Positions 17,978 through 61,230 of a stretch of DNA of 64,000 bases are shown piece by piece. The stretch lies in contig OZ287751.1 of NCBI GenBank assembly GCA_965649765.1, forward strand, positions 30,814,001 to 30,878,000. Direction: 5' to 3'. Made by a program: the position numbers and the translations under genes. Source of the stretch: Bispira polyomma. Lineage: Eukaryota. Numbering within the stretch: position 1 is the first letter of the stretch; each line of letters opens with the position of its first letter. The notes under the pieces were generated by a model. It was not told where the DNA came from, searched no databases, and saw nothing but the letters and a program-made list of their open reading frames with translations.

Positions 17978-18234
17978 TGAATTTGAATTTGGATATTTAA
18001 CGTCCACTCTAGTACCTTTTAGTAGGTTATATTGGGACGGGCAGTTGGAAACGCTGGAGGAAACACTGCATACAGTCGGTGAAGGTTCTGCAGAGAAACC
18101 AGCGGCCCACAGTAAGGAACTACCACCTTTCCCACATAGGCATCGACGGGATTCGAACTCACGCCGCCCAGAGAGGGGAGAGAGCAGTGATTGTGAAGCA
18201 CAATGCTTGCTAACCACTAGGCCACCGCGGCCCC
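17978..18234 (-). mobile_element. tRNA-derived SINE, family A, copy 2
   Basis: Reverse complement of family A; TSD tctttgactt; (CAAATT)n tail. Confidence 0.92.
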
Positions 18235-19738
18235 TCTTTGACTTACTTAAAGCTTTTATACAACAGGTTGTTCTTTAAAATATCATAGTAGATTCTGTAT
18301 AATGTTGCATGTCCAAAATATCCACAGGATTGGGTTCTAGCTACTTATAGGTAACTTCTACTTATACATAATTAAAAACTGATGCTTTTAAAGGTTGGGC
18401 CTAGAAAATTGGTTGCAGTTTTAGAGAAACTTGTCTTGTATTGATTCTAGTTACAGTGAATCGAAAATGTTATTTATAGGCAATAGGTATTCAAATCCGA
18501 TCCATTACAATTTCCGGCCTAAACATTTTTTTAACGTCACAATAAAGATGCTTTATACATAAAAATGCCAATACAAACTTTGAATTTTTGAAATAGAAAT
18601 GTTTGCAAACGTTTTTAACTGCTATGACACAAACAACTTACACAAATTTTTAAAAGACTGGAAAGTGGTACACCACCATCATATAGAGATATAATCAGTA
18701 GTATCAATTCCAGCAAACTATAAATTTTGTTCTTCTAATTAAAAAAAATAATACAAAGTAATATTATCTTGAGTTTATTAGAATGGATAAATGTTCCTGT
18801 CCTCGAGCTTATGTGGTGACTTGTTGCGGGCGTGGGTGGGGTGGAGGTGGGGGGGGGGGGGGGATATTGAGATAGAATTACTAATATAGATGGTAAGAAT
18901 TTGATTAGTTGTAACTGAAGACAGGTCATAAAAATTTGAAATACATGTAAAGTGAAAACAAAGATATTGTTAAACCCCTTTAAAACTCAGCAGCATTGTC
19001 CATTGATGAAAAGAAGATGTTATTAAAGTTACTACAATTAACTGTAATGACACAGAAAGATGTAATTAAAACAAGGTCAAGCAAAACATTAACAGCAACT
19101 AAATAGTGGCAACGATGAATGCATTTAAATAATTGTAAAATTTAAACAATTTTTAACAAATGTCAGTTTTATAACTCTGACATCAATATCATTGTAGATT
19201 GTAACAAAATTAATGTATGTTATATATAGTTTCTTCTAATTAACCATTTTTTACAAAAGTAATGTACAGTGTATATAATGTTTAACCATTTGTTATAAAA
19301 TTAATGTACATTGTATATACTTTCCTTCTGTTTAACCATTTCGACCCTAAGATAAAACTATCGGCGGGAATTGAAGTCTGACAATTGGGGGTACTTTAAG
19401 AATTTAAGTAAGGTAGGATCCATGTTAGTGTTCTCTGTTTTTGAAAATAGAGGACAGTTACTTGTTCCCGTTAAATTGTACTTTGAATATACTTTCACAT
19501 ACCAAAGTTACGTATTCTCTGAAAAAGAGTTAAAATGGTTTTGATAATTAGAATAGTTTGCTCTTTTTAGTATAAATTTATGTTTAAAATTTCTGTGGTA
19601 ACGTTTGACATTGAATGTTAAACTTCTCTCAAAGAATCGGAGTCATTTTATAAAGGATGTAATAATTATCGTATTTTGTTTTTGTTTATTTTTTCAGACA
19701 TACACGTGAGCCTAGTTAAGGAAAACATTGCCGATGAC

Positions 19739-21149
19739 ATGCAATGTGTGATTCATTTACTTCTAATCTATAGTTTTCTGTTCTGCCTTCTGATACCACT
19801 AAGGCTAATTGAAGGACAAAACAATGGTCCATACTATGGACAGAAGATGGATGGGCAATCCAGACAGAAGGCCAACAACGTAAAACATCAATGGAAAGAT
19901 GAAGAAAATGGTGGGCAAGTTAGGGTAAAACCAGAATATAAAAACCAGGATGGTTTACAGGATTCGGAACCCAGGGCTGCACACAAGTATTCAGATGATG
20001 ATCTGCACCAGATTGGGGAAAGGAAACACAGAAAGAAAGAGCAGCGAGCGAAACTACAAGTGCAGGTGCGGAATGCTAGAAGTTTGGACAATGAACAGAA
20101 ACAGGAAACAGTTGAAAAGTACCAAGATGCAGGTGATCATGTAAATCTGCTACAACAGCCAATAAAGGATAATGCAGCACATTACCAGCAGCAAAGAAAG
20201 GAGTACAATGGAAACTATCAACAACCTGTAAATGAGAAAGTAGGAGATTATATAAAACCGAGAAAGCAGGATGCGGGGATTTACCAACAACCAGATAATG
20301 AGAACGTTGGGAATTATCCAAAACAACAGAACGATAATGAAGGAAATTACCAACAACAACAAGGGAAAGAGAAAGTAGTGAATTACCAACCACCTGCAAA
20401 TGAGAATGTAGGAAATTATCTAAAACCAAGGAAACAAGATGTAGGGAACTACGAACAGCCAGACACGGAGAATAGAGCGAATTACCTAAAGCAAAGGAAA
20501 GATGATGCACAGAATTATCAACAACCAGTCAATGATAATACAAGAAATTACAATCCAGCACTAAACAAAGACAACTACCAACAAGGGGGCAAAGAGAATG
20601 TAGAAAGTTACCAACTACCAGTGAAGGAGCATGATATGGTAGCAAATGCAAGAGGTTACCAGAGAGGGATGAATGAGAATGGAGGCAATCAACAGCAGCC
20701 AGAGAATGTAGGAAATATAGAAAATTACCAGCAAGTAGTAAAAGAGAAGATTGGGAATTATCAGCAACCTTTGAAGGATGGTGGACCCAATTATGAACAA
20801 CCAAGAAAAGAGAGTGCTGTGAATTACCAGAAAATGGAAAGAGATGGTGCTTTAAGTCTAAAAGAGGACAGAAAAACAGGAAAAAAGAAACGGATTGAAA
20901 GGTATCGGCGAAATGAAGATGTGCAACAGGAAAATGACGATTTATCAAGCAGAAACTATAAGAATAAGGGAAATGTGGAGTCCTTAAATGATAACAGATT
21001 AGAGGGCTTTAAAGAGACTGATTTGCATAAACTGGAGAATGTTCTTCTGAACTATAAGGACACAGAAGATAGAAAAAACAAATTAGATGCTGCCAAGCTG
21101 GAAAATGTCCACATGAAGGATGGGTATAATGTACTACCAACAATAGACA
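19739..21149 (+). CDS. Hexosaminidase coding exon 1: signal peptide plus Q/N/Y-rich repeat region (exon starts at 19698)
   Basis: Acceptor ttttttcag| ends at 19697. ATG at 19739 begins the hydrophobic [26 protein letters not shown]. Donor A|gtaagt at 21150, phase 1. Confidence 0.85.
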
Positions 21150-24100
21150 GTAAGTGGCACAGTTTCTATACAGATTGGAGTGTATCGCAAAAATATTTTG
21201 AACAATGAAAATTCAAGATTTATAATATTTCTTTAAATATCACTTCCTCTCGCCGGCAGATTAGATCTTGTAATTCCAGCCATTAAAATCAGCGACGATA
21301 CATATCCAGAAATTCTATGTATATGATATGACACAGCCATTAATGTTACTCTGAGTCGTGTTTGTTGCATCAAATCTAAGGAATAAAGCCTTTAAGTGTG
21401 TCTTGTTTTAAACAAACTAGATCCAAAGAACAATTTGTCAATGAATTTTCTGTGCCAACAAATAGTTATTTAGTATGTGGATATATACAATGTTTTATAT
21501 TCTATCTGCATTTTGACCTTAACTCTTAGCCTAGGCTTCCTTTCAGCAGTCACTAATGTAGTTTGCTTCCTTTCATCAAATATATAGTAAATATTTCAAT
21601 ATAAAAAAAAAATTTTTAATTTATGTTAGAAAATCGGACCGACCTCCCGATTTTTTTCCTCCCTGACCGATAAATTCTGATGGTGTAATAGACGTCGGCC
21701 GACGCCTGATCGGATCTAAAGAAAGGGTGTTAAATGGAAGCACTTGGTAGTATCATGTAAGGACCGATAATATCGGCCGATGTCAGCCAAGAAAAACATG
21801 CTGAAAGGAAGCCCAGGCTTACAATATAATGAACCATGATGAACCTTACAAATCTTGTCTGGTCTATGTATTAAGCCCTTTCAGACTTGAGATTGAGTTT
21901 AGTAAATGTATTCTAACCAGGATGTAGATGTATATTTCTTGGTGTCCGATGACCTCCCCATAAACCTTCCTCATTTGGGTGATGACGCTGAACTTTCATT
22001 TACAATATCTCAGTTTGCAATTGTCACAGGAAGATATATTTGGTACTTATAGTCCTACTATAGGCTATAGATGTGATTACATTGTAGTTGACCCTAGTTT
22101 TACCTTGGATTTAAGAGTTTTACTTTTGATCTACAGTAAAACCTCCATATAGTGAACACTCACAGGACCCAGCCAAAATGTTCACTAAAAAGAGGTGTTC
22201 ACTATTAAGTGGCAATCCTGGTTAAGTAAAAGTATTTTTACTTGTTATTTTAAGATTGACTTAAAAGGGGTACAACAGTAAAAAACTATAGCTATATAAT
22301 AACATTGTGAATGTGTTTGTTAACCCATTTATATAAATGTCAGCCGTTTGTACTGTGTATGAATATATGTTGTCCATAAGTAGATTGATTCAAGTCCAGA
22401 TATATATTGATACTATGTAGCAGCCATTTTTTTTGGCAGTTTGTTCACATCTTACTTAGTATATATTTGTCTTTTATAATAATTGTTTGGTTTGTTTCTT
22501 TTGAAGATAAATTAGTCGTCCAGCAGTCACAAGTTGGCCTGACAATGAGAAACAGAAGTGAGATCCGACCAGCTGAGTCCATTGCTGATGGAAATGCTCA
22601 GGGACTGTATGCAGTTAAAGATGGCCGTCAGCAGGACTCGGTGAATGAAGAAAATAGGAACCTAGAATATGTAAAGAAACAAGGTGATGATGCCTTAAGG
22701 AACAAAGACTTTGAATCTTACAAAAAGCAATCTGCTTTAGACAAAGCCAAGGATTTCTTAGTTCAACCACAAGATCCCTATGGTCAGAAGAAGGATGAAG
22801 ACCAGAATGCCAAACCATGGAAGAAAGACAAAGACGATTGGTATCCTCGTCAGAAAGAACTGGATCAGGACGCATTTCCCAATAAATTTCACCCCGAGTT
22901 ACCTGAAGATGAACAGAAACATAAGGAGTTTCATGTTGATACCAATATAGCAAAGTTTGGCAACATGGAAAGTGACATAGCAGAAGCTCAACGCGTCATT
23001 GGATCTGATTTTCGGCAAGGCAATATACCAAGGGCAAAGAAAAAGCTAACAAAAGGACCTGCAAGGCCACATCCTTCACAAAGAAAGAACGTACAATGGA
23101 TGGAAGAGTCTCAGTCTTATAATCTCAAACTATCTGCCAATGACCAGTTCCGTATTGGCTATGCTCCTATACCACGAGAAGGTACACCATGGCCTATGCC
23201 ACAGTTCTACACTCCAGGGACCAGAGTGTTCTTGTTAAAACCAGAAAACCTCCAGTTGAGCTCACTTGGTGAAAGCTGTGATATCTTAGAGTACTCGATA
23301 CAGAGGGCAAAGATGAACATGTTTGGGGAAGACAATGTCTCCTCGTCCTCAGAAGACCATCATAACTTCCATCTCTTCAGAGAAGAACAGACTGGATATC
23401 CAGAAATAAAAGTTCTTAATATAACAGTGCTGAAGGAGTGTGGCCTATTCCCACAGTATGACATGGACGAATCATGTAAGTAGATGTACATAGAATATTA
23501 TATTTTATTATCCACTGTGATATCATTGTGACGTTTTCGTGGTTGATACCAGGCTTGTATTGTACTAATTATCTTCTTTCATCATATATTTTTTTAATAT
23601 ACACCAGTTGGGCAGTTTTACTATTGTATTACAGTGGAACCTCTATTATTTGAACATGTTGTGAGACCAAGAGTTTTGTTTGGATAATAGAAGGTTCATA
23701 AAATGAAAGAGGCATTTCTGTTTAAAACAATAGGAAATCACAAATTTAGGAGAGTGGAATATTGGATAGTAGAGGTTCTCCTATATATAATTTTAACGCC
23801 TTTATTGATGTGAGGCATCTTCTGAAGTGCAACAGCTGAATCAGTCAACCAATCATGTGTCCTACAACATAGCCTGGGTCGTCATCAGTAGGCAATAGCA
23901 TGTTCACATCTTGCCCAAATATTATTCTACCAATTAGCTTTGTGACATTAGCTGGAGTCGAACTGGGGACCTTGTCATCACCAGACCAACTCCCCACTGG
24001 GAGTTGAACCAGTTACCTACTGATCACCAGACTAACTCCCTAATTTCTAGGCCACGGGAGACCACATAATTTAGAGCAAAAACCCCTTTAAGTAGAACTC

Positions 24101-27100
24101 TGCTGACCCAGCCTCCCTATTACAAGACATGCCTTTATTATCCCACCATGTTTGGAGGGGAAGATTTTGTGAGGACAATTCTGGAAGGTTCACAAAATAG
24201 AACAAAATAAAAGACATATTTTAGTTTTAAGAATAGAACTACATGTACTGTAAATTCAGAATAAACAATGTTCCGTACAACTTGGATCATTATAATTACT
24301 CAACGTACAATTGATGGCACAGCAAATTTGAAAAATGCTATAATGCCTCAAAAATACAGACAAAAGAAGGGGAGGGGGGGGGGTCTGTCTCTAAGGCCTA
24401 TTCTTGGCCCTCACAAAATATGAAAAAAAAAAATATTTTCATTTACATCAACTGCCAGCCAAATGACCAGGGATGGGGATATAGAATTGTATCACTATGT
24501 CAATTAGTCTGTGCCATTTGTCTCATTCTAACCAAACTCTTATGTGTTAATGGATTTTGTGAATTACCCAAAATAACATTCACCAAACCATTAAATTCAC
24601 ATATGAATACAGCAGAACCCACATAGATTTTTTAGACACAACAGTCAAATTCAATCCACAAAGAGAGCTCATCACTACCCTGTATAACAAACCCACTGAT
24701 ACACACTTGTATCGACACCACACTTCAGCACACCCAAAAACTGTTTTGGAGAAAGGTCCATATGGGCAATACCTCAGACTTAGGCGCATATGCACACTAA
24801 ATGAGGATTTCACCAGCAATGCCAAGAAACTCACTGAGTGCTACCTTGCTCGTGGTTACCCCATTAAATCCCTCAGGGGTCACTTCAGAAAGGCTAACAA
24901 ATTCACTCAAGCACAATTACTTGCAGTAAACAAAAGGGAGCAAAATGACCCTCAGTTTTAGTAACTGAATACAACCCAATAAACCCAGACATTAAAGGGC
25001 TCATTAAACATAATTGGAATATTATCCAACACACAGATGACCTAAAGAAAATATTCAATGAAAAACCTATCATTGGATTCAAGAGGCTACCTAACCTCAG
25101 AGATAAACTTACCTCTGCCAAAATTTTGTACCCTGCAGATAGCTGTGAACAGTCAATAAATGACCTCCCACCTGTCTGTACCAGATTAGGCAAGTGCACA
25201 TACTACCCCAAACTTAAGAAACTGGATCAAATCACCAGTTTTCATACAAAAAAGGTTTACAAGTGTATTAATCTCCCACCAAAACCCCGTCTCACATGTG
25301 AATTATATTACTTGATTTACATGATCAACTGTAATCAATGTGGATTACAATACATAGGGGAAACCAAGAGGCCATTTAGACAAAGGATGTATGAACACAT
25401 AAGAAGTGTTAGCAATCCTAAACTACAGTCATCCACCCCAGTGTCAAGGCATTTTAGTCAGAAACAACACTCTACTAAAAATATGGAGTTCAGTATTGTC
25501 CATTGGTTAGGTTTGGATTATAAGGCAAATAGTACAGAGCGACGCAGGCGTCAGGAACTGTACTATATATGGGCCTTACCAACCCTTACCCCTACTGGGA
25601 TTAATATATTTGTGTGATGAGGCCCTCTTACCTGGCACCCTTACCCTAGTGCCCCCTTACCCTTTATATTCTTATATTGGGCCCTTCACTCAACAGAGCT
25701 CAAACGCCTATCTAGGCTCTATTGACGTCACAACGTCACGCTGACGTAACCCACCATTTTAACGTCACGTTACGATCAGGGCATTATGACGTCACCGTCA
25801 CCAGGCAATTCACCTTACTTACCTGGATATTTTGTCTGACTACACAATACAAGCTGTATTTGAATTGCCCATATACAAGTGGCACCTTTTTTTTAAAATT
25901 ATTTTTGTGAAAAAATTTTGTGGAAGATATTTGTAAATAAACAAATTCTGAATAATGTGGTTCATTTGCCACAGCACCTTCAGCAGGAAGTCGAATTTAA
26001 AGAGACACCTCAAATGAAGACATCAGGAATATAGAATCCACTGTACACTTTGTAACAAGGCCTTCAGGAGACCTGATTACTTAAAGAGGCACACATCTCA
26101 GTGCCCAAATAGACAAACAGATGTAATGTTCAAAAACATTCTAGACTGTATTGACACATAGGATTATTCCCCAGATTTATTCTCACAGGATGACATTTTG
26201 GATTTAGCGCAACACAATTCCTCAGCTCACCACCTGATGGACTGTGTCGTTACCACAGAAACTTTCACATACTACCTGGGCCAGTAATTCAACCCAGACA
26301 GATCTGTCAATCCTACCTGATTGTAGACAGAATACACATGTGGGAGTGAATACCTCACCTGTATTTTGGAGAGAAAAGTCTACCCAGATTAGCCCTATCA
26401 GGCTTTGCTCAGCTTCTACCTCACCACATGTGTTGATGCTGGATGAACAACCTACTGATCCTGATCCTACCACAAGCTCCACTCCAGCAACACCTGGAAA
26501 GGAGTTACCTTGTTACTACACTACTGAGTACCTCAAGGAACATGACCACCTAGGACTATTCCTTCCAGATTCTGTCCAGTTTGGGGACACTCTTAATCTA
26601 GAGGATCCTATACCGTCACAGCAAACGAATTCCTTTCAGTGGGGCAACTTACCCTTGGACTCTAGTAGTAAAGAATTCAACCTATTAGAATGTCTGGAAA
26701 ACATATGCATGGATTTATAGGATAATATCTCAAACTATAGGTATTATTTTGTGTATCATACTATATCGGATGGATTACTACCGAATAATCCATTATACTA
26801 TAAGCTTCAATTATTAATTTATTAGTATTATTATCCCTAACATGGTTTAAATTATTAAAGTTAATGTCTATTTTCTTTTTAATTATATTAGTGCATATGT
26901 ATATTCATTGGTGTATTATTCACACCACCTATTTAGGTTGTTTTCCTGTTTATACTTTATTAGTATTAAACCATTATGTACATGAAATACTATTTTATCT
27001 AACCAAATCCACTGCAATCACTGTTGCCTTGGTCAGCAGTAGGCTTGATTACTGCAACTCTCTGTTCCGTTCCCTATCTTGTAGTGACCTCAAACGTCTT

Positions 27101-30100
27101 CAGAACGTTCAACACTCATTGGCTCGCATCGTGGCCAAAACTTCTAAATTTTCTCATATTACTCCTGTACTTAAGTCACTCCACTGGCTCCCAATAAAAT
27201 ATCGTGTTGCTTTCAAAATTGCAACAATTATATACAAATTTCTAAATTCTGGATCACCCACCTATTTCAGCCCCCATCTCTCCAAATATACATGCTCAGT
27301 CAGGACTAGGCGCAGTAACCCTGATAAGTAATATCTTAACATTCCCACTTTCGACCCTCGCATCCACAAATCCAAAGTACATTTCAATCATTGCCTTGCT
27401 CATGATGGCCCCTTCATATGGAACAGCCTGCCTGATCATGTTCGCTTGGCTCAAACGTTCCTCCTCTTTTAGGAGTAAACTGAAGGCCTACCTTTTTGAA
27501 CAGGCCTTTCCACCTTAGCCATCCCAACCATCCCGGTAGTCTCTCTGGTTATGACCACCATCCGTCCCCCATTTCTGATTTTTTTCATTAATGCTTAGGT
27601 TAGTTGCGCCTTAGAATTTGTTATACAAAGATTAAGCACTATAAAAGTACGATTAGATTAGATTATTTCTGTTCATTCCCTTCTGTGTCACCCTATCAAT
27701 AGTTTGGTAGTTTTATTACTTATGTAGTCAACTACCTCTAACTATAATAATAGTCCCTTCCTTTTAAGCTGATCGTTACTAATTAGGGTAACTGTGTTTC
27801 ACCCCACACCAACGGTACACACAGTAACCCATTAGCACATGTCATTGGAGCCACCCCAACTTGTGGAGGCTCCCCTACTGGTCAACCAACATTACCCCAG
27901 TTATTAATGATTTGAATTTAGTAACACCACCAGTCATCACTGGTGGAATCACCACTAGAGCCACCTCAATATGTGGAGGCTCACCACTGGTCAACCATGA
28001 CAACTTTTAAACACTCTGGTCAATCACATTTATTGTTACCTTTGTGTACTCCATTTTTTTGACAAATATCCCCAACCAGATATCATTAATTCACCCCCAA
28101 ATATTGTATTAGTGTATTCATATTCAGACACTAATAACCATATTTGAGGATTGCCTCCAAGGTGTAAATTCAGAATGCGTTTGAACGGACTGACACACAC
28201 ACACACACACATTGTGTTTATCTGTGTATAATATACCTACTTATCCTATATTTAAATAGGATTGGACCTCAAATTCACTGTCAACTGTATAGATACTGTA
28301 TTCTACTATACCATGTATGATAGGTTCAGTATTTATTCACATTTATATATTTATTATTCCACACATGAGAATAACTATTAATAATTATATGTATATATTA
28401 AATAATATATTTTTATTAATCAATTAAAAAGTTTTTTCTGGCCTCTCTATCTGATAATCATATTGGATCTGATACCAGAATCACTGCTTAATACCCAAAC
28501 ATTGAACCCAACAAAAACACATTATAATGGGTTCACCATTTATTCATTTATTCATACATTTATTTCCCCTCATAGGTGAAATTATATTTATTATTATATA
28601 TGCATAAAGATTAATATAATAGTTTGAACCACCCATTAGTTGACTCTTGGTTCTGTACACACCTGAAACCTTCCTGACCACTTATTTCAGTTAGGACAGG
28701 ATCTATTGTCTCTACAATGATTACCTTTGAGTCAGAGCCCACTTAGAGTTCTGCTCCGCCCAGTTGCTCCGCCTGATCAGGTGGAGTCAGGCGGAGTCCA
28801 TTTTTCCACCTTAAGGTAAAAAAGTTGAAATTTTTTACAGCCTCTGATGAGAAACCCACTGGAGTTCGAAATATATTTGAAACCAATAATATATAAGGCA
28901 GTCAGTTCACTCCTGTCACCTACACCAAGTTCAAATAAACTCTTATCTGATGATCATATTTTGAATGGGACTTTATTGTGTTTATAAAATGCATTATAGA
29001 AGTTTGCCACCAAACGTGAAAGCCAAGTTGACTACCGTAGTAATTTTTTGTTTTTCAAAATTTTTCACCTGTCATTTAGAGCCAAAGTACTTGAGCCAGA
29101 ATAACCCCATTTCATAATGGAGATTCCTTTAGCAAATAGGAAAAACTTTTATGACTTTCAGGTAAAATGCTTAAATGTTGAGATCACATGACCTGATTTT
29201 TCATAAAATGGTTTATAGTATATGAGCAGGAGATACAGCAATTTTTAACAAATTTTTGGCCTGCTAGGGTAGAATGGATGTAATATTGAAATTATCTTAT
29301 TTGTCCATTTGTCCAATCATGACATTTGTCTAATTATTATGGCTAAACTGTTTTGCCACAGGATGATCTTAATTTGTATGGGGCTTTATCATGATACAAT
29401 GCTAAATACAAATTTCGACAAACTCTGAAAAACAAAGATGTCTAGCATGGTGACTTTTTCAAAAAAAAGGGATGGGGGATCGTAGGTTTGTCCATTCATC
29501 CATTTGTTCGTTTGTGACATTTGATTAATTTTAGCCAAACTGTTTGATAAATGATGATCATATTTTGTATTGGGCATGATACAATTTTTGCATAATGATT
29601 TACACACTGTTGAATAATCTGATCTGTGAGATATTGGGTGGTTGTGCTCATACTGAAAGAAATAACTCTGTACCCTGTTTCAGTTGATGTTTATGTAATA
29701 ATAACTTATTAAATATACCCCACAAAATGTAAAATACAACGAAACATTCTTAAATTGTTCTATGTATAGCATCATTTTTTTTTTTTTTGTTCTGTCATGA
29801 AAATTATCTACTTCTCTCCTGCATATATGATCATTTTAATCAACATAAAAACTCCAGCATAACTAACTATATACATTACATTTTTGATGTACCCATACAT
29901 AAAGCCACCCCCAGACCCAGTCTTTTGTCTGTAGTTTAATTATTAATACAAAATGAGGTCCAATTGACTTAAAATCTCTAATCGTTGTTTCCTTTTGTGT
30001 GTGTGATAACACTAATAAACTACTGAGTCTGTATTCTTTAAAAGAAACTGTAACTTAAACTGAGGTTCAACTCATGGTAAAGGCTTATGTGAAAGTCCTT

Positions 30101-36100: not shown

Positions 36101-39100
36101 TGTATTGTTAGGTTGCCCTATATGTAATATTTACCAAAATTATTAGTGGAGGAGAGGTACATTCACACATTTATATGGCTTATGTAGTGTGGTGGTTGAT
36201 GAAAATAGTACTGACATGACATGCCGTGGCGTCCCCTATACTGTTGTGTAGTCAGTGGTTTGTAAAGCCTTTTATAGACTATTTTACAGCACAAATAAAG
36301 TTATTGCCATTATATGACATCATTACATCAGTTAAATCTTATTTACTGGTGTTTTATCTATTTCTATTTAGATGATTTGGAAGTGAGAAAAAGCGGAGCT
36401 GTGTTAATAGCCCGAGAAGTGTGGGGAGCCATCCGGGGTCTGGAGACTTTTACACAGCTTGTGTACCAGAACGAAGCTGGACAAGTGAGTACTCATATCC
36501 ATATTTGTATACTGAGAACATATAAAATTAAAAATTTAGTGTCTCTGTGGCGTAGCGGTTTGGATCTGAAAGATCTGAGGGTCCCAGTTCGATCCTCGCT
36601 GCTGGCGGGGTGATTGTACCCTTGGACAAGGTGCTTTAACCAAAATAGTCCCTCTCTTCCCAGGTATATAAATGGGTACCTGGCCGCTACTGGGTGTTAG
36701 TCTTTGATGCGCCGAATGTGGCAGCATGGCTAGTATGCTTCCTGGGGGAGTTGAGACTGAACAATTGGTTCACAAGTGCAAGAACCCAGCCTGAGCTTAT
36801 AACGTCAAAGCACAATAACTGGGCTATATCAAATAATAGTTATTAGTATTTATTTACCTTAATCTGGTAATCACATCATTATAATTACATGTACCCCTTT
36901 ACTTGACTTGCCAAAGTAGAGTCAGCCAGCACTAGTAACTCTAGTAACTAGTACAGTGGAAACTCTACTATCCAGACATGTTGCGAGAACAAGATTTTGT
37001 TCGAATAATAGACTGTTTATGAAATAGAAGAAGCATTTTAGTATAAAATAATAGGAAAATGAAAATTTAGGAGAGTGATACTGTATTCATAAAATCGAAT
37101 ATTCAGAATTTCAGATAATAGAAGTTCGGATAATAGAGGTTTGACTGTATACATAGTTACAAGGTTACCATTACCCACACAGAAGATATGCCCAGACGAA
37201 AGTTAGACTACATGCTACAATGAGTAGATTTTACAGAGAAAAACCTTTGCGTTACTCCAAATAAAAGAGTAACTGACCAACCAGAGTTCTACCTGCTGTA
37301 CTTGTAACAGGTTTCATGGAGAGTTTCTTGATGACTTAGTTTTACAATATGTGAAATAGTGTTAAGCACACCCCACTTCTACGAAGTAGCCCTTATAACC
37401 TGACAATGTTCCATATAATATATCTACATACAATGTATGATTTAAATTATACAGTAACACAGAAATTTGGCGTTTCTTATTTAGATGTCTGGACAATATT
37501 AACTTTTGGAAGTGATCCGATACAAAATACTTATTAATGATTTATTAAACGTTGAAATTTTTTTGAGCGACTTCGGGTGAATTTTTGGCCCGGCGGGTAT
37601 ATACAGTCACCTGCAACTTGCCCAAATCTTTAAAAATTTTCAAAAAATCCAAATTTTCTAAAAAAGAGTTCCAAAAAATCTTAAAAANNNNNNNNNNNNN
37701 NNNNNNNNNNNNNNNNNNNNNNNNNNNNNNNNNNNNNNNNNNNNNNNNNNNNNNNNNNNNNNNNNNNNNNNNNNNNNNNNNNNNNNNNNNNNNNNNNNNN
37801 NNNNNNNNNNNNNNNNNNNNNNNNNNNNNNNNNNNNNNNNNNNNNNNNNNNNNNNNNNNNNNNNNNNNNNNNNNNNNNNNNNNNNNNNNNNNNNNNNNNN
37901 NNNNNNNNNNTTTGGCGGCCAACTTGAATTTCTGCGTTAAACATATAAACGTGTTTATCTCGGTAATAATGCCAGATGGAGCGATGTCAGCCGAATTTTG
38001 GGGTATATGCAGAAAATCGCTCTCCCACCATTTTTGGCAGCCATCAAAATACATTTAACGTCACACAATGTTTCATTTGGATGCTTTGTTTTTGCTGTGC
38101 AAAAACAATTTGCTTTCATTTGCAAAGCAGTTTCTAATTTTAATATGGTTTTTGCGGTATTTTCGGAAGCTGTACAAAACATCCATCTTCATCTGTCCTA
38201 AGTCGGAGCTTATCACCTAATTATGGGACCAACAGGTCGCCATTCTCATCTTGTTATCATAATTTGTTTGTCACAAATTTGACAATATTTTTTATTACTT
38301 TTGTAATAGGTCTTGTATTTGTGATATGTCTGTATTATTTGTTCACTATTGGATCCATAATTGCATTGTAGAAATTGTAACAGCAAATACCACTTTGTTT
38401 CCCTATTATTTTACCTCTTCTCACACGAGGTGTAAAACAGTTATAAAGACAGTGACAAATATGAATTGTTCTAAATGTAATTAAATATGTAAAATGTAAA
38501 ATAAATAGAACTACATCAGGGATAGGTATATGACTACATGATGAATACACTGAATATAACTCTCTTGTGGTTAACATTAACATGGTAGGTATACATTTTT
38601 TGTATAGCCTATTATTCTGTGGTTTCTAAACCTCGGAAAAGTCACGGAATTCCGTCACGGAACGGAAAATCGCCTAAAAATCGCCCAATACATATATATA
38701 TAAACAAAGATGACCCTATAAGTTACCTAAAATCGTTAATAATTAACCGATTTTGATAATTTAAACACCACTGTAATCCTTATAACAAGGGCCATGTATA
38801 GATGCTAAAAGAAAAACGCAACAATAGGTTGAATATATATTTATTGACATCAAAGAACATACACAAAGAATTTGACAATTCTAGAGTATATTCAATGCAA
38901 AGGATCTGTCTGTTACTGTGTTAAGTCTATTCAATGCAGATGCTCTGTCACAGTACCAAGTATATTGGACGATCCACGGAAAATCGCCCAATACATTCTA
39001 GAGTATATTCACTGCAGGGACTCCGTCACTGCATTGAGTCTATTAGGCGATTCACGGAAAATCGCCTAGAATCAGTAGGGGGCTTCTATTTTAATGAATT

Positions 39101-45100: not shown

Positions 45101-48100
45101 AAATTATTTCAAAGAAATAAATCCTAATTCACCTGATGCTGTATGATACTTCCTGTTGAGAGGCTTCACTTATCAGAGTGTCATCAGCATACACTGGGTT
45201 TTCCAATTGTATTTCCTATTTTTCAGTACCTGGTCAACAAGAGCCTGATACATGATTTCCCCAGGTTCAAACACAGAGGTGTCATGCTGGATACCTCCAG
45301 ACATTACTTGAACAAAGAAACCATCATCATCAACTTGGTAAGTATTTCCATGTACTGCTCTAGAAAGCCAGTGTTATTTATATGGTTTTTTTTTTTCCTG
45401 TATAAAAATTACATGGTGAAACCCCTTTAAGTGGAACTCTGATAAGTTGGTTACCCTTTTATGTTGAATTAAATCTGTGGTTCCAGTGTAGCCTTTTCTT
45501 TAAAAATCTACCCTCTTGAGTGGATATCCTGCTTAAGTAGAAGTAATCCTTCTGGTCCCTTGAGGTTCCACTTAAAGGGGTATGATTTTGGTACCTGTAT
45601 TAGACAAGCATGATTTCTCATTTGGCTACAATTGCTTTAATAGTGTGTCTGTACAACATGACCATACAAATGGACACAAATCTGATAAATTGGCCTTACT
45701 ATTAATGCCCCTGGCATCAAGGTTAGAAGTAACAGTGTTAATGTACACAAGGGACTTGGTGATCTTTTAAAACTTTTTTCTAATAAAAGATCAGAAGCTA
45801 CACAACACCACTGCCAGGAATGTCTCAAAGTTGGGTGATAATGTAATGTGTTCTATACTATGGAAACAAGGTTTGAGCACGCAGTATCCATTGTTGATTA
45901 AAGGACAGGCCCCTACTTAAAAAATGGATGAGGTGTAAAAAATGGATAAGTCAAACACTGAAAAGCAGTGAAGTTTTAAAATGTTAAGTAAATTGTATTC
46001 CAGCTAAAAATCAGCCTTTCAGGGAGATATTCTTTGTCTGTAGCCTCAGGTGGCCAGTGTAACTTACATCTAGTGTCAATTTCATCCCACATTTCACTTG
46101 ACAAAGCATTCGCCCACTTTATCAGTTGTCCCATAAAGAAAAACCAATATCTGTAACAAAATTTCAAACAGCTGTAATCGCAACATTAAATAACCTGACT
46201 TTGTAAGGAATTTTAAATACATTTTGAGAGTTTTCAATTGTTATCGAAATGTTAATTATTTTCATTGTCTTTAAAAGAGCACCTGTGCTTTATATAAACC
46301 AAAAAAAGTGGCAGCACTAATTTTAATTGGTATGACATTATACATACACAAACCAACTGGTAAAAAGTTCTGTTGTAGTGCTCCTTCCAAATATCAGTCC
46401 TGTTTAAAATGCATGTAACCATTTTAAAAGCTGTTGTCTCTCAACAGCCTCACTACCTCGCTACTAAACTCTCCTTCAGCAGCCTTACAAAGGGAAAGAG
46501 ACTCTCTGTTTCCTCTAAAAACCCGCCAAGAGAGATGGATGTAGAGCCTTCTCGGTTGTTGCCCCTATGTTATGGAACAGGTTTCCAGTGGAACTTAGAC
46601 TGCTTGAAACACTTTCTGGTTTTAGGAGAAAGCTTAAAACATATCTCTTTAGGCTCGCCTATCCGCCGTAGTCCTCTTCCTGGTTGCTGACGCATCCATC
46701 CTTACGACCTGGCTATGTTTTTCATTTTTCTATTGGCTGATTGATTCTGATGTTGTGCCTTAGAAGATGCCTAGCATCAAAAAGGCGCGTTAAAAAATTT
46801 AAAATACAATACAATATTGAAGGGGGTCGCAGTAGCCTAGTGGTTATGTAAGTGCTTGCTTTAAAATCACTGGCCTCTCAATTCTTGGGATTGAATACCA
46901 CAGATTCTGTCCTGATGTGAGATCGTTTGTCATGTACTTGCCATAGGTCAGTGCTTAACAGTGGCTTCAACACTAAACCTGGCCATTTCAATATAACCAA
47001 AGATGATGAAACTGATGTAAAACGTAAATGACTAAATAAAATCCAAATATTAAAGATGGGTTGTTTTCCTTTTACATTTTCAGTCCGTTGGAATGTGTGT
47101 TGTGAAATGACATAATTTCCACAATGGGACTCCAGTTGCCCAAACTGCTTGTGAAATGAACAATTAGATTTGGGTTGTTGTAAAGTCTACACGGAGTTCA
47201 AAGACAATAGAGTCTCCTGTATCTGTCCCGATTCCAACCAATTATCTGCTCTGTAACATTCTTGATAAAAAAGAAATTTGTGTTGTTTTTTTCTCTTTTA
47301 ACAGAACATGGAAAATGATTAATATGTCAATAAAACAAAATTGATGCATGTTAAGTATTTTATTCACTTACTAATGACACATTGGCCTTTTTTGCAGGTT
47401 TAAAATTAGGTGTTTCATATGAATATCATGTACAATGCACCTTGTGTGACTTTGGTGTCGGATATTAAGATGAGAATCAGTGTCCAGTATATGAGAAGAT
47501 TGTCACATTCTGTTTCAAAAGATATAATTTTACATAAAAATGAAAACAGAAACTTGATGCCACTTTATTACTAAAAACAGTAGAAGGAAGGGGCTAACCT
47601 GGACTTTAATGTTGTACTAAATGAGCAAGAATTTTCTGTAGAATGGAATTTTCTGCATAATCTACAGAACAACAGATTGTAAGACAGGGATGTACATTTT
47701 TATGGCGGCTAATGCCTCATTCATACATTGTCAGTAATATTGGTTCACCATACCGTCATAGTGTAAACGCCACCTAAAAAAGTTGCTAGTATTACTAATG
47801 TAATAAAGTACGGACGTTCAGAACTTTTAAAACATATTTCAAGCATATTGGAAACCATGGTTAGGGGGATTTAATGCACTGGAATAAATTTAACCCTTAG
47901 TTCAATGGTCAAACTTGGTCATAAAGTTTGTAGTCATTTCACACATAAACTATATGCTTGGTTTTATGGTCAAAACTGGGGTTATCAAGATCATTGATTT
48001 ATTTAATAGGGTCCAAGAAACTTGCTGCTAGAATTTTGTGGGTGTAGTTTGTATCAGATCAAGAGTGTATGGCCCGAAGGGTTAAGTTTGAGAAGTTTGC

Positions 48101-51100
48101 TTCAAATCCTGTACCTCTTAACTGTTGTTTTTATATTGATTAAATGTATCGTAGGCCTATACCAGATCGGCAATGCTCGGGGTATGTACAACGTGTCCAC
48201 TTGTGACACATTTCACTTTTAAAAATTTGACTAAAACATGCGTACCTGCCAAATATTACGAATATCAATAATAAATTAATGTTAACAATGTAACAATGAT
48301 GCTGATCTGTGAAATGACTGGGCTTATATAGACAGGAGAGACATGATTATTTTGTCTTGGAAGTCTAATCAGTGTGATGTGGCTTATGAGAGGAGGTTAC
48401 ATGTAAAAGTAATAAATTAAGCGTTCCGCAAGAGGGCACATGGGCAATTTGGCACATCTATGCAGTAGCCCTGGGAAAAACATTTTAATATGGTGTCCTC
48501 ACACTTCGACCAATCAGAAAAGTCACATGACCAAAAACACATTTTTTTTAAAGGGGTGTGCTTGTCCGGATGATAACTTAAAATGCGCTTCACCTATTCT
48601 CATAAAATTTAGTAAATAGGTTTCTTATACATGTATAGATGTCTGGACAACATTAACATCCGATACAAAATGGCCGACTTATTAACGATTAATTAAGCGT
48701 TAAGATTTTTCGAAACAATAAAAATGAAAAATCCTTAATATCTCGGAAACGGTGCGAGATAGATCGATTTCAGGTGAATTTTGGGCTCGGGGGCACACTC
48801 AGTTATATGCAACTTGCCCAAAAATTCATTCAATCATTAATATTTAAAAATTCAAAAATTTTTCAAAAAGTCAAAATTTTCAAAAAAGTCGAAAAATTTC
48901 AATATTTTTTTAAAAAAAGTGCAAAATTCAAAAATTTTCAAAAAAGTCAAATTTTTTTTTCTTCATTTTTTTTTTGCAACATTTTTTTTTTTTTTTTCTT
49001 CTTATTGTTTAAAAAATGTATTTTTTTTTACAAAATTTTTTTTTTGCAATATTTCTTTAATTTTTTTTTTTTTTGCCAATATTTCTTTTTATTTCGTTTT
49101 TTTTTGCATCGCTTTCTTGCCATTTTTGGCGGCCAACTTGAATTTCAGCTTCAAAAGCAAAAATGCTTTTATCTCGGAAAGGGTGCCAGATAGAGCGTTT
49201 TCGGCCAAATTTTGGGCCTAGAGGGTATATGCAAAAAATTGCTCAATGTCTCATTGGGACGCTTTGTTTTTGCTGTGCAAAAACAATTTCCTTTCATTTG
49301 CAAAGCAGTACTCTAGTTTAGCTTGGATGTACAAATACAGCGTTACGTCATGAACTGCCTCCATACAATGATACTTGTGTCTCAGGCCGTGTTGATTTAA
49401 TTATTATATTGGTGCATGTGCCCCAAGCCCCACGGTACTTTGAACACGCAGACCATGTCCAAAGTAACTTTTACCCTCTAAAGTCTCTCTGTAAAGACCA
49501 TGGGCTGTTAACTCAAAGGTTTGAAAGAATAGGGGATTAGCTCTCATTTGAAAATGTTCAAATTTACAACTATATTCATAGAAAATTGGGGACGGGCTCT
49601 TATTACTTTGTTTATATTATTGTTTACTACCACCAACTTTTGGTGGACTGTTTGTTTTATTTTGAGCGTCTATTTCTTGTTTTGGAAAAAAACGAATGAA
49701 ATACATAATTTATTTTGCGGTGACAAAATTCAATGCAGCCAAATTTGGACAGAAAATAGTATGTAACAGATGCAAGTTTGTTATCAGGAATAATAGGTAA
49801 TATGATATTATGAGTGTTTTATGTCTTATAAATATTCCCAATGTAATCAGTAAGTCAATTCTAAATAGCTTACACAGTATGTGTCATTGTTTTATTCCAT
49901 ATCTGATATTTAACTGTTTCGAGGGTTCATATAAACTTTAGGAACACTGTTTTGCAGGAAGCCATGGCTCAGAACAAAATGAATGTCTTTCACTGGCACA
50001 TTGTTGATGAGCAATCATTTCCATTTGAGAGTAAAACCTATCCAAACCTCACCAAAATGGTAAGTCACCTGTCATATAAAGTTATATTAAATTAAACCTG
50101 TCAGATAATGTAAGGTGAAAGATTAATGAGTCAGATTAATTTCTGCTGCTAAATGGTATTACCATTGTAAGTAACCTATCAGATAAACTACATGTATTTC
50201 CTCAAAACTTCACTTCACTGTTGAACCTATTCCCAGTTGTTCTCTATGTGTAAAAGGGATATCAACTGAACAGCCTTATGAAATTCTACCTGAATCAGTT
50301 TGACAGTGCTTAGAATAAATTTTAAATATATATGTATTCATCAATGATTCTATTTAATTCATATAAAAATGTTAAAAAAAAATAAGAAAAAACAACAAAA
50401 ATCTAAAAATGATTTCAGCAAAAAACCCTGTGCTTGTATTCACTAACAGGCTTAGCAAAGTCTTAGGCTTAAATCTAGCACAAATGTATGCTAGAATTAA
50501 GCCTAAGACTTCCCTAAGTCTGTTTACTTAGTGAATAAGGGCCCAAAAAGACAACAGAAATCATACTATTATAATAATTCTGCAATGTCAGCAGTAAACG
50601 ACAAAAATCATATTGTTAAAAAGATCAAGTGATGTCTGCAAAAAAAAACCCACTATTGTGTCTTGTTTACAGGGCGCCTATAGTCCATCCCATGTGTACA
50701 CTCCAGAGATGATGGCAGACATCATTAATGAGGCCAGACTTAGAGGAATACGGGTGATACCTGAGTTTGATACTCCAGGTAGAGTTTAGTGTTTTGTATG
50801 ACAAAGCATGTATACCGTAATACTGGGGAGTTTAGCATCATTGGAGGTGTAGGAGTATGAGGGCTTTTTGAGTCGTTTCAAGTATAAGTTACAGTAGTTT
50901 CTTTTTTAAAACATTAAAAGAAAACAATTAAACATTCAGTTGAAACACATTGTGTCATTTTTATGCAATAAATGAAAATTTTAAAATGGCTGGACTGTTA
51001 CAAAAATATGTACATTATGTGCAAGACTAGTTTAAAGAGTTTATTGTTGCATAGAAATTTCTTTGAAATAGATCTTTTATGTAATACATTGGCAAACATG

Positions 51101-54100
51101 AAAAAACCGGCTTTATTCCTTCAGTATGTAATAATTATCACATGACTGAGTAACACAATACAGTCACATGACTAAAGTTAATTCTTTCACAGGTTATATG
51201 TCATTACAAATGCCATGTCAAATTTAACCTCCTTTAACAACAGCTAGGCATGAAATCTATGCCTGCAGCTGAAAATGTGTCTTTAATTTTTTATGGAATA
51301 TTTCTACTAATTTGTAGACAAACCTGTATTAACATGCTGGAAAAGGTATCGCTAGATTATCAATTAAAGATGATGCCAAATCTGTATGTACTTCTACCTA
51401 ATTTTAATGAAGGATAAACTTTGTTTCGATATTTAATAGATAAATCAAATATATTTTACAGTCCTCTATGTTTTCTTCTAGGTCACACATTTTCCTGGGG
51501 TCTTGGACAAGACAACCTGTTGACTCCCTGTTATGACTATGATGGAGAACCTACTGGTTACTTTGGTCCTATCAACCCTATCTTAAAGTCCACCTATAAG
51601 TTCCTTCAGGGATTATTTTCAGAGGTATGTAAATTCTGATTGTTAGGTTAATTAACTCCTGGAATTTGAGTCCTTATATGTGTTTTATGTCACTTTTAAC
51701 ATCTTTTGATCATACTGTGATGGTAAGATTTATTGGTGGATGAAACTACATGAGGTACTGTTTCTGTACGGGAAACCACCAAACCTACGGCAAGTACCTG
51801 GTAAATTTTCCCACATGAAGGGAAGCAGTTCAAATGAATCCCACTGTTCACGGAGTGGAAAGGTTAGTGATATTAAAGCAGATGCTTATAACCACAGTTG
51901 AGTAATATTAGATATACCTTCCAACTTCTAAATCTAGTTAAAGGAATGTATTAATGGTGCACTAACGCAGAAACATAGATGTTTAGATAATTTAATTATG
52001 CTATTTTTTTTGTGAAAACTAATGCCCCAGTCCCACCTGCCTTCACATAAGCAGCCATTACAAAAATCAATTTGCGTAGGGTTTGCGTGGTGTTTGCGTG
52101 AGCTGATGTAATATACATAAACATACATAACCTGACATGAGAGATGATACACAAGAAATTCTAATTGGGGAATAAGTGAGCACTAACTGTGATCAAAGAT
52201 GTAATTTTAAAGGAAATTAGCTTCATTTGGTTTCTTCGTTTGTTTTGTTGTTCCCTTCAAAAACCACCAGAGACATTTATCTTTCTAACAAAACAAAAAT
52301 GTAATTTGATTCTAGTTGACTACATGTATATGCAAGGCTATTGACACTAGTTTTGCCTATATTTTTGTTATATTACAGTTGTTTTTTATGGTTTTCTCAC
52401 TTGAGAAAAAAATAAATAAATTAAGCATAAAATGTGTTTAACAAATTGTATGATACAGAGATTGTTATTGGTGTTCCAGTCTCGAAATGACCACGGAGAC
52501 TAGGGAAGGGGGGGGGGGGGGGGAAGTGATGTAACGGGTGTGCATTTAGCCAAGGTTGCCAAATACACACTTTACATGACAAATTTAGGGGAGTAAAAAA
52601 ATAGCGCTTATATTAGTACTTTAGTTAGATCAATTGCAAACCGAAAATGATACTGCATCACAATTTACTTTGACATTCCAACAGTTACACTATTTACACA
52701 ACTATTGTTTCAGCAATGCTACTGATTTGTTGCATATTCCCAAGACTTATTTGCTCCTTTCAGTCATTTAGAGACTGTTTGGTTCACTATTGACCGTGTA
52801 ATGTTAACTAATAAGCTTCACAATTTTATTGCAGGTCATGTCAATCTTTAAGGACAAGTTCATCCACTTGGGTGGAGACGAAGTTCCCATGGAATGCTGG
52901 CAGACCAATCCCTTCTTAGAACGGTTCTTGACCAGGAATCATCTCTATGAAATTAAGGACCTGCTAAACATCTACATGAAGAAGCTCTTTGACATCATAA
53001 AAGGCATCGGCAAGTCTCGGACTGCGGGCAGTGGCAAGATTGTCTGGCAGGAGGTGTTTGACAAAGGGGTTGAGATAGATAAGGACACAACAGTGCAGAT
53101 CTGGATGGGAGATGCTTGGGATATTGACCGGGTGACCTCTCAAGGTCACTCTGCCCTCTTTTCCACATGCTGGTATTTGAACTATATCAGCTATGGGATG
53201 GATTGGGATAAATATTACAGATGTGAACAACTAGGTGAGTTATTATTAACTAATGATCGAAGTTTTTGACGAATAACATTTTCCATGTCCGCATCAAATT
53301 CGAATTTGAATTTGAATTATGTTATGTTATGATTCTCAGTGAATGATTGTAGTTTATGTTAGTTATATAAAATCTTAAAACAGAAATTCCCAATTTTTAA
53401 CCTAGACTTGTACAATAGATATAAGTAATCTGTTCTATTATGTGTTTACACAATACTCAGGTTCACATCTAACTCTGTACAATATCCATATATAACTGAT
53501 ACTGCCCTATATTTCACAAAACTTAGGTTAACACTTCACTCTGTACAAGATCACTATTTAACTGATACTGCGACATACATGTATTTACACAATGTTCTTG
53601 AACTGTGATCACAGAAGAGTACATTATGAAACCACTGCTTTAAAGAGTATGTTATGAAACCACTGCTTTAAATGACTATTTAAAGATAGAAGTTGTCACT
53701 CAACTTTTTCACTCAATCTTTATGAAAACAAAAATGCCCCGGTTCTAACTTGGACTTGTACAATATGTAAGTAAGGACTGTACTGTACCAATACCAGGTT
53801 CACACCTTAAACTCTGTACTGTATATTTATATATAACTGATACTGTCCTATAATACACAATACCAGGTTCACACCTTAAACTCTGTACTGTATATCTATA
53901 TAGAACTGACATTGTCCTATATTACACAATACCAGGTTCACACCTAACTCTGTACAATATCTGTATATAACTGATATTGTCCTATATTACGCAATACTTA
54001 GGTTCAAACCTCGACCTGTACAATGTACGTAACCAGTCTTTAATCATGGGGGGAGAAGTTTGCCTCTGGACAGAGTATGCTGACGATGAAAACATCTTGC

Positions 54101-60409: not shown

Positions 60410-61230
60410 TCTTCTAAACCGTGCGAGATAGAGCGATTTCGTCAAAATTTTCGACCCTCAGGTTATCTAAGCAATGTACTCTTGGCAATTTTGAAAAATA
60501 TTTTACTCTCCCCAAGAATGGCGGCATTTTTGAATTTTTTCCAAAAATGGAAAAACGTAAATTTGCTTCTATCTCCTTAACCGTGCGAGATAGAGCAATT
60601 TCGTCAAAATTTTCGACCCACAGGGTATCTTAAGAAATGTACTATAGGCAATTTTCAAAAAATTCCCTCTCCCCAAAAATGGCGGCCATTTTTAATTTTT
60701 GAATTTTTGCCAAAACTGGAAAAACACAAATTTGCTTCTATCTCCTAAACCGTGCGAGATAGAGCGATTTCGTTGAAATTTTAGACCCACAGGATATCTA
60801 AGCAATGTACTCTTGGCAATTTTCAAAAAGTTTTCTTCTCCCCAAAAATGGCGGCCATTTTGATTTTCTTAACCGTGCCAGATAGAGTGATTTCGTCAAA
60901 ATTTTCAACCCACAGGGTATCTAAGAAATGTACAATAGGCAATTTTCAAAAAATTCCCTCTTCCCAAAAATGGCGGCCATTTTGAATTTTCGAATTTTTG
61001 CCAAAACTGAAAAAACACAAATTTGCTTCTATCTCCTAAACCGTGCGAGATAGAACGATTTCGTCGAAATTTTCGACCCACAGTCTATCTGAAAGATGTA
61101 CTATAGGCAATTTTCAAAAAATTTCCCTCTCCCCAAAAATGGTGGCCATTTTGAATTTTCGAATTTTTGCCAAAACTGGAAAAACACAAATTTGCTTCTA
61201 TCTCCTGAACCGTGTGAGATAGAGCAATTT
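60410..61230 (+). repeat. Tandem array of ~168 bp units (about 5 copies) inside a larger element starting near 59978
   Basis: Units begin ccgtgcgagatagagc at ~60419, 60581, 60750, 60873, 61041 and 61209. Confidence 0.92.

Follow-up and report, generated by a model that had tools for sequence, protein, structure and literature searches.

A tyrosine-anchored 11-residue repeat in the predicted N-terminal extension of a putatively membrane-anchored GH20 hexosaminidase from Bispira polyomma

The gene that carries the repeat

The window, i.e., the whole 64-kb stretch of DNA analysed here, is part of a 1.035-Gb genome. On its plus strand, a gene could be modelled as 13 exons between 19739 and 58137, in which all 12 introns are of the GT-AG type, the phases fit (1-1, 1-1), and the joined frame codes for 1326 aa with no internal stop. 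The model runs from a signal peptide through a Cys-free low-complexity extension of 637 aa, which contains the repeat, to a GH20b domain, the GH20 catalytic domain, a linker and two hydrophobic helices. It is predicted to encode a GH20 beta-N-acetylhexosaminidase with a C-terminal two-helix membrane anchor.

The repeat lies in the first coding exon found (19698-21149, 1452 nt, phase 1-1), which is bounded by a polypyrimidine-AG acceptor and a GTAAGT donor. A single orthologue of this exon was recovered among 777 candidates, the 409-aa protein P0200, which shares the start Met at 19739, is 44% identical up to the donor and ends two residues past it. The first 26 residues (19739-19816) are a predicted signal peptide, with a hydropathy of 2.53 over aa 3-21 and a likely cleavage before Gln27; P0200 is identical at 14 of these 26 positions and has the same junction between G and QN. 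This signal-peptide-like start, kept in both species, supports the extracellular or luminal location assumed when the repeat was first noticed in the bare sequence. The second exon (22507-23475) contains the remainder of the low-complexity extension, a motif conserved in the clade described below (from 23091) and the start of GH20b (PWP at 23187). It has 79 relatives at E<=0.001, among them P0121, to which it is 62-63% identical. P0121 and P0200 come from the same source, each on a contig of 938,132, and are presumed to be co-located.

The downstream exons, out to 58137, were located by tblastn with homologues. A GH20 exon at 36372-36484, found with P0002-P0004 and joined in phase by GT-AG introns, is followed by those at 45227-45337 (with the motif DTSRH), 49958-50059 (HWHIVD), 50673-50778 and 51482-51624, of which the second and third after it, at 49958 and 50673, were also matched by the GH20 profile. 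The catalytic exon (52835-53234) matches PF00728 at E 3.3e-19 and human HEXB and HEXA at E of about 1e-30 to 1e-27, and holds HLGGDE (52865-52882) and a substrate-pocket loop (53171-53197) that is without the alpha-type Arg. Further GH20 exons lie at 54002-54110 (LWTEY) and 55365-55469, and the domain ends, with the linker, at 56150-56297. The exon at 56804-56955 encodes predicted transmembrane helix 1 (56834-56890, hydropathy 3.15) and matches P0002-P0004, and the last coding exon (58026-58137) encodes predicted helix 2 (58042-58098, hydropathy 2.24), matches P0002 and P0003, and closes with an in-frame stop. The motifs for the catalytic Asp-Glu pair and for substrate binding (HLGGDE, DTSRH, HWHIVD, WYL and LWTEY) are all intact; HLGGDE and WYL were aligned to human HEXB, and the others were placed by likeness to the numbering in PMC2492878. 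The domain architecture is that of the HexA/HexB type, with PF00728 matched by the catalytic exon and PF14845 matched in part by the second exon (E 1.3e-4, under the curated cut-off), and full-length P0002 passes both.

It could be argued that the first exon encodes a separate small secreted protein, or an intron-retaining isoform that ends at the stop at 21208, apart from the hexosaminidase, and the open reading frame does continue for 19 codons beyond the donor before reaching that stop. However, the similarity to P0200 stops at the donor, where P0200 itself all but ends, and the next exon is in phase and without a signal peptide of its own. Relatives, moreover, have signal and enzyme in one piece: P0002, P0003, P0005, P0006 and L024 each carry a signal, a low-complexity extension, GH20 and two hydrophobic helices in a single uninterrupted ORF. 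A separate product is extremely improbable, and the repeat very probably belongs to the hexosaminidase protein, although the join of its exon to the rest is itself a prediction. The stand-alone matrix or prion-like protein of the sequence-only reading gives way here to an N-terminal extension of a GH20 beta-hexosaminidase gene, by a predicted splice join.

Several other features were observed in the surroundings. The 12.9-kb intron holds a broken retroelement (24563-25617, plus strand), in which a GIY-YIG endonuclease (PF01541, E 3.3e-6) comes after a fragment that looks like reverse transcriptase, and which is probably Penelope-like. An ORF at 26804-27331 on the plus strand, which gave no match in Pfam, looks like the C-terminal part of a LINE-type reverse transcriptase. 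Very high-copy interspersed repeats lie at 21505-21840, 22006-22340 and 23509-24000, in the introns flanking the second exon, where contig depth exceeds that of the exon by a factor of hundreds to thousands. In the contigs of one DNA run (X2), the depth was 113.7 for the repeat exon (19650-21250) and 61.4 for the next (22177-23576), the two being near-equal in the runs X1 and X3. On the minus strand, a GC-rich stretch at about 18130-18235 has tRNA-like box motifs when inspected by eye and is possibly a SINE; ARAGORN found no tRNA in the 64-kb window. Downstream of the gene, a tandem array at 60391-61234 has periods of 123, 169, 291 and 460 nt.

The 11-residue repeat

The repeat was first noted at 20118-20850, a span that lies within a 528-codon ORF on the plus strand (19622-21208), and its units extend over 20147-20854. 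There are 18 Tyr-anchored units from 20213 to 20854, and degenerate copies lie at about 20147-20212 and close to 20690, which makes the original count of about 20 eleven-residue units a fair one; all seven of the units then quoted were found in this ORF, starting at 20213, 20246, 20279, 20381, 20414, 20447 and 20480. The 244-aa span from 20118 to 20850 contains 21 Tyr residues, and 13 of the 20 gaps between them are exactly 11, whereas 20,000 shuffles averaged 0.7 such gaps and never gave more than 5. The autocorrelation of amino-acid identity peaks at lag 11 (z 11.0) and lag 22 (z 9.1), where 99% of shuffled maxima stay below 3.9. At the DNA level, self-identity is highest at 33 nt (0.50), 66 nt (0.46) and 99 nt (0.45) over a median of 0.30, and Tandem Repeats Finder reported only one 69-nt piece of the array, which fits old, diverged repeat units.

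The units are of two kinds in the first half of the array, at about 20213-20545, where A units (YQQP-type) alternate with B units (Y-x-K), and are plain 11-mers thereafter. The 22-residue higher-order period that had been proposed holds for this first half and is absent later, and over the whole repeat the autocorrelation at lag 22 (0.26) is no stronger than at lag 11 (0.28). The companion proposal, that an acidic unit is followed by one with Arg and Lys, fits loosely only, with A units ranging in net charge from -2 to +1 and the four Y-x-K units having +1, -1, +2 and +1.

The exon interval 19650-21250 was recovered as one contig in each of three DNA runs with no differences, which argues that the array is not an assembly artefact; the runs are from a single study, possibly the assembly's own source, and their short-read contigs are genomic and read through the introns. 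No second allele of the repeat was seen in these contigs of one study. The 11-residue Tyr repeat is genuine and protein-coding. It would have arisen as a coding tandem expansion of a 33-nt unit.

What is conserved in the repeat

The comparison with P0200 showed how much of this pattern is shared. Of the 212 repeat residues, 152 align to P0200, and the number of units differs between the two species. The YQQP-type anchors of P0200 are spaced at 24, 20, 22, 20 and 23 residues and then mostly at 11, such that the two-part layout is common to both. Its Tyr residues are fewer (10 in 177 aa), with 2 of 9 gaps equal to 11 (P 0.03), and lag 11 reaches a z of 3.8, just below the shuffle limit of 3.9; its basic units are without Tyr, and it has a 42-aa duplication of its own (lag 42). 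In the single pairwise alignment of the two repeats, which is ambiguous and favours the YQQP anchors, Tyr was kept at 9 of 14 positions, Gln at 18 of 26 and Pro at 7 of 11, whereas only one each of 11 Glu, 11 Asp and 6 Arg residues was retained. What appears to be conserved is YQQP with a Lys/Gln-rich unit between, and neither a Tyr every 11 residues nor the positions of the charges. The sequence-only reading had named an orthologue without Tyr periodicity and with neutral dN/dS as the outcome that would tell against it; P0200 keeps the strict Tyr periodicity only in part, which goes halfway towards that outcome, and it does keep the YQQP spacing.

Beyond P0200, the repeat was not encountered in the sequences compared. 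The N-terminal extensions of 10 other proteins of the clade measure 50-217 aa (one being 5'-partial) against 637 here, and all 10 have a QxP count of 0-1. Among 22 other extensions or exon fragments, lag 11 was the top period in one, on account of an unrelated short duplication. A metagenome scan with the repeat-exon alignment gave 0 relatives among 501 pattern matches, and when the conserved part of the next exon was used for a further scan, 16 loci came up, 15 of which were examined and had no upstream YQQP repeat, most of the contigs being short. No longer homologues of the second exon were found at E<=0.001. Of four weak extra matches in the same genome, the two loci that were read, L014 and L015, are DNA satellites open in several frames and not paralogues; the other two matches adjoin L015. 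The Pfam matches to the repeat were noise (Mucin-like, E 0.03-0.19), and the nearest ESM Atlas entries, semenogelin (0.81) and an apidaecin-like protein (0.76), lie below a useful level, 0.81 being reached by a third of shuffled proteins.

Selection on the repeat was assessed among its own units. The frame of the repeat exon has no stop, as opposed to 39 and 40 in the other two plus-strand frames. With the Tyr column left out, pN/pS among all 18 units was 0.68, and within types (5 A and 3 B units) it was 0.39, a value biased low because the units had been grouped by amino-acid likeness; a neutral simulation of the latter gave a mean of 0.91 (P 0.013), with a stop in 93% of the runs. These ratios compare unit pairs within one genome, which are not independent, and are distinct from a dN/dS between species. 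The protein-level constraint suggested at the outset is supported by the stop-free frame, by the two ratios and by an orthologous exon at 44%.

The constraint is unevenly spread, and this bears on the idea that the repeat is nearly inert, i.e., that a disordered extension tolerant of change grew by slippage and unequal crossing-over, with selection doing little more than keeping the frame open and the chain polar. Columns 5, 6 and 9-11 of the unit, at a pN/pS of 0.83-1.17, are what this idea would predict, as is the variation in unit number, each species having its own duplications, and so is the range of the clade extensions from 50 to 637 aa with no repeat in common. Columns 1, 3, 7 and 8, at 0.26-0.52, argue against it, together with the within-type ratio under the neutral simulation, biased grouping included. 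Furthermore, the repeat is conserved relative to P0200 (41%) to the same degree as the rest of the extension (29-43%), and the two-part layout is shared; the enzyme part of the next exon is 79% identical to its orthologue. A nearly inert repeat is unlikely. The repeat is lineage-restricted, with real but weak constraint.

Physical character of the repeat

Gln and Asn make up 30% of the repeat, Tyr 8.6% (5.6% in P0200, where the Tyr of the B units is not kept) and charged residues 27%, with a net charge of -3, less than 1% Ser, hardly any Thr and no Cys. Lys exceeds Arg by 21 to 10, and by 22 to 2 in P0200. The FoldIndex is -0.32. Single-sequence AlphaFold, which is weak evidence for disorder, gave a mean pLDDT of 50, mostly below 50 over the repeat, with no strands, and placed a long helix at aa 86-171 with a pLDDT of up to 87 around aa 87-116. 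In all likelihood, the repeat is disordered, as these models predict.

Prion-like (Q/N-rich) domains are charge-poor, the yardstick being 30 or more Gln+Asn per 80 residues along with a low content of charged ones. In both species, the maximum was 29 per 80, just under this number, with 24-27% of the residues charged. The prion-like reading of the Q/N/Y/G bias does not hold up against 27% charged residues, at most 29 Gln+Asn per 80 and the near absence of Ser, and the repeat is not classically prion-like because of that charge. A looser version of the idea, in which Tyr stickers and the patterning of charges in a phase-separating domain would make the enzyme condense inside secretory granules, could draw on the Gln+Asn and Tyr contents, the near-zero net charge, the evenly spaced aromatics and the lack of Cys, and on the semenogelin cluster as the nearest in the ESM Atlas, for what a score matched by a third of shuffled proteins is worth. 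The same figures for charge, Ser and Gln+Asn stand against it, as do the excess of Lys over Arg and the halving of Tyr in P0200, and we regard such condensation as very unlikely.

Two other functions were considered and set aside. Tyr sulfation is unlikely, with 1 of the 21 Tyr residues having at least three acidic residues within five positions, and so is an amphipathic helix built of 11-mers, as in LEA proteins or synuclein, since most units contain Pro and Gly and no confident helix covers most of the repeat.

The hexosaminidase subfamily

The enzyme part of the model resembles human beta-hexosaminidase A/B in its GH20b and GH20 domains, in the match of the catalytic exon (E about 1e-30) and in its catalytic and substrate-binding motifs, with the residues taken from PMC2492878. 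The ordinary animal hexosaminidases compared are about 540 aa long, without an extension or C-terminal helices, in contrast to the 637-aa extension with its repeat and the helix pair seen here. The best single-domain matches of the catalytic exon, at 59-63% identity, are proteins of 731-824 aa that include one from Capitella teleta, whereas ordinary hexosaminidases of 500-600 aa reach 39-49%. In a midpoint-rooted tree of 31 hand-picked enzyme cores, the model and 10 long proteins formed a clade (11 of the 31 rows) at 100/99, within which the nemerteans Lineus and Tubulanus were sister to a 9-row group containing Capitella. Two C-terminal hydrophobic segments are present in seven of the eight full-length clade proteins and one in the remaining protein; none of three ordinary mollusc hexosaminidases has any. 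The separate clade and these segments speak against orthology with the ordinary soluble lysosomal HexA/B.

The members of the clade, besides the model, are P0002-P0006, P0015, P0142, P0159, L021 and L024, of which the named ones are from Capitella, Lineus and Tubulanus. The Capitella teleta protein CAPTEDRAFT_228468 and the Lineus and Tubulanus "hexosaminidase alpha-like" proteins (P0004, P0015, P0159), whose names are automatic only, share 47-61% core identity with the model and have an N-terminal extension of low complexity and hydrophobic helices at the C-terminus, of which P0004 has one and P0015 and P0159 two each; their extensions are 50-99 aa long and without the 11-mer or YQQP repeat. 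An AlphaFold model of P0002, built from a 30-row alignment, had a confident core, two C-terminal helices and a pLDDT below 50 for residues 21-104, and its fold matched human HexA/HexB (PDB 2gjx, 1nou, 1o7a) with a target TM-score of 0.93 at 45-46% identity.

The pocket loop reads NY here, DL in HexB and NR in the alpha-type modB, Tyr thus replacing the Arg of modB. A positively charged pocket is a feature of HexA alpha that serves charged substrates, according to PMC4774620, and the Arg after WYLN that would provide it is absent here, so that neutral substrates are predicted on the same authority. Insect and ascidian plasma-membrane and sperm enzymes are likewise GH20 enzymes held at the membrane. 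In PMC2492878, membrane-bound animal hexosaminidases are ascribed to an uncleaved N-terminal signal anchor (type II), in contrast to the predicted C-terminal helix pair of this gene. As judged by sequence, the host gene marks out a GH20 subfamily characterised by a conserved motif immediately ahead of GH20b and a predicted C-terminal two-helix anchor. No published description of this clade or its repeat was found within the largely open-access literature covered.

Other GH20 sequences were seen along the way. The same genome has at least five other GH20 genes, encoded by either strand, clustered in about 115 kb (G000:C2:23559814-23672307), and additional loci at 62.0 Mb of C2, 58.6 Mb of C7 and 61.3 Mb of C9. 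A second exon-level GH20b set (P0176, P0179, P0182, P0187 and P0193), which was outside the tree, has another upstream motif (WDWS/T-type) and long Asn/Gln-rich N-terminal stretches. Two full or near-full clade members, L021:627-3059 and L024:31-2781, are intronless on short metagenome-collection contigs and are probably transcripts.

Proposed processing of the extension

Two basic sites bracket the repeat. Upstream lies RNAR (aa 111-114, 20069-20080), a minimal RxxR convertase-like site, and downstream, after a Lys cluster, lies the furin-type site RYRR (aa 388-391, 20900-20911), the sole Rx[KR]R in the 637-aa extension; cleavage at either is a prediction. RxxR is described as the minimal convertase motif in PMC2953431. 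Both are kept in P0200, whose only two RxxR sites match them, and their surroundings (10 of 12 residues identical around RNAR, 15 of 23 over aa 371-393 around RYRR) are better kept than the repeat. The extension has four RxxR sites against 2.2 expected by chance, little above, and Rx[KR]R occurs in 2 of the 10 other clade extensions. Three 12-aa windows reach 10 of 12 identities to P0200 against 0.66 expected (P 0.018), but just one of them is basic; if the cut-off is lowered to 9 of 12, the P becomes 0.06.

The conservation of both sites and of their surroundings favours a disordered pro-region with furin-type release. The reading to which we lean is that of a disordered pro-extension of a predicted membrane-anchored hexosaminidase, the repeat block of which is likely clipped by a furin-type protease; for convertase cutting of the extension taken by itself, the likelihood is evenly balanced. 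The signal peptide would direct the protein into the secretory pathway, with the extension and the catalytic domain luminal or extracellular, and, given the C-terminal anchor, the extension would be a free end and not lie between the enzyme and the membrane. Unfolded and highly charged, it would serve as a pro-region. Cuts after RNAR (aa 114) and RYRR (aa 391) would free a 277-aa repeat peptide and leave the anchored enzyme, which, without the alpha-pocket Arg of HexA, would trim neutral terminal GlcNAc/GalNAc. Selection would then act on length, charge balance and YQQP, not on a strict register of a Tyr every 11 residues, and the block might perhaps serve as a weak sorting or retention sticker. 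A specific binding role for YQQP is possible but somewhat doubtful. By itself the repeat is ordinary, since fast-evolving low-complexity extensions are common on secreted enzymes; with two conserved convertase-like sites bracketing it, however, one can ask at little cost if a structural peptide is released from an enzyme precursor as well.

Possible cross-linking and a hypothetical two-product precursor

The sequence-only reading had also raised cross-linking through Gln, Lys and Tyr. In such a tether, the links would be made by a transglutaminase, between the first Gln of YQQP and Lys in the basic units that alternate with it, or else by oxidised Tyr residues, and the enzyme or the released repeat peptide would be fixed in a chitinous or glycoprotein matrix such as cuticle, tube, jaw or chaeta. 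Each species has 8 QxP motifs where 2.4-2.5 would be expected (P <0.001), human TG2 targets Gln in QXP (PMC2988817), and the two species have in common that Lys-rich units are interleaved with the A units. During mussel shell repair, transcripts of beta-hexosaminidase and of repetitive low-complexity proteins are both raised, as reported in PMC8194122. However, the QxP excess is a by-product of the repeated YQQP unit and therefore not independent evidence, the TG2 rule is that of the human enzyme, and the motif is missing from the other clade extensions. The halved Tyr density of P0200 and its Tyr-less B units count against the tether too, and the DOPA or dityrosine variant is weakened because strict Tyr periodicity is only partly kept there. 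The enzyme, besides, already has a predicted membrane anchor. Gliadin QXP peptides, semenogelin and molluscan RLCD shell proteins are similar in being Gln/Pro/Tyr-rich, disordered and secreted, with lineage-specific repeats that contain QxP, but they show no homology (no Pfam match above noise, Atlas 0.81), and here the repeat is fused to an enzyme and cross-linking is hypothetical. Overall, the tether is unlikely.

The furin-type release that we prefer and the matrix cross-linking could be combined into a two-product precursor, in which the cut frees the 277-aa YQQP/Lys peptide to be cross-linked into the matrix, and the C-terminally anchored hexosaminidase remains at the cell surface and works on chitin or glycan in the very matrix that takes up the peptide, trimming it. 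This combination is quite unlikely. If true, it would mean that one worm lineage built a two-product precursor on an annelid-nemertean GH20 subfamily for which no description was found in the literature covered.

The subfamily is unlike the soluble or N-terminally anchored animal hexosaminidases of one family survey (PMC2492878). The host enzyme is a candidate for the trimming of glycans at the cell surface or in the Golgi of annelids and nemerteans, and its subfamily may hold more interest than the repeat.
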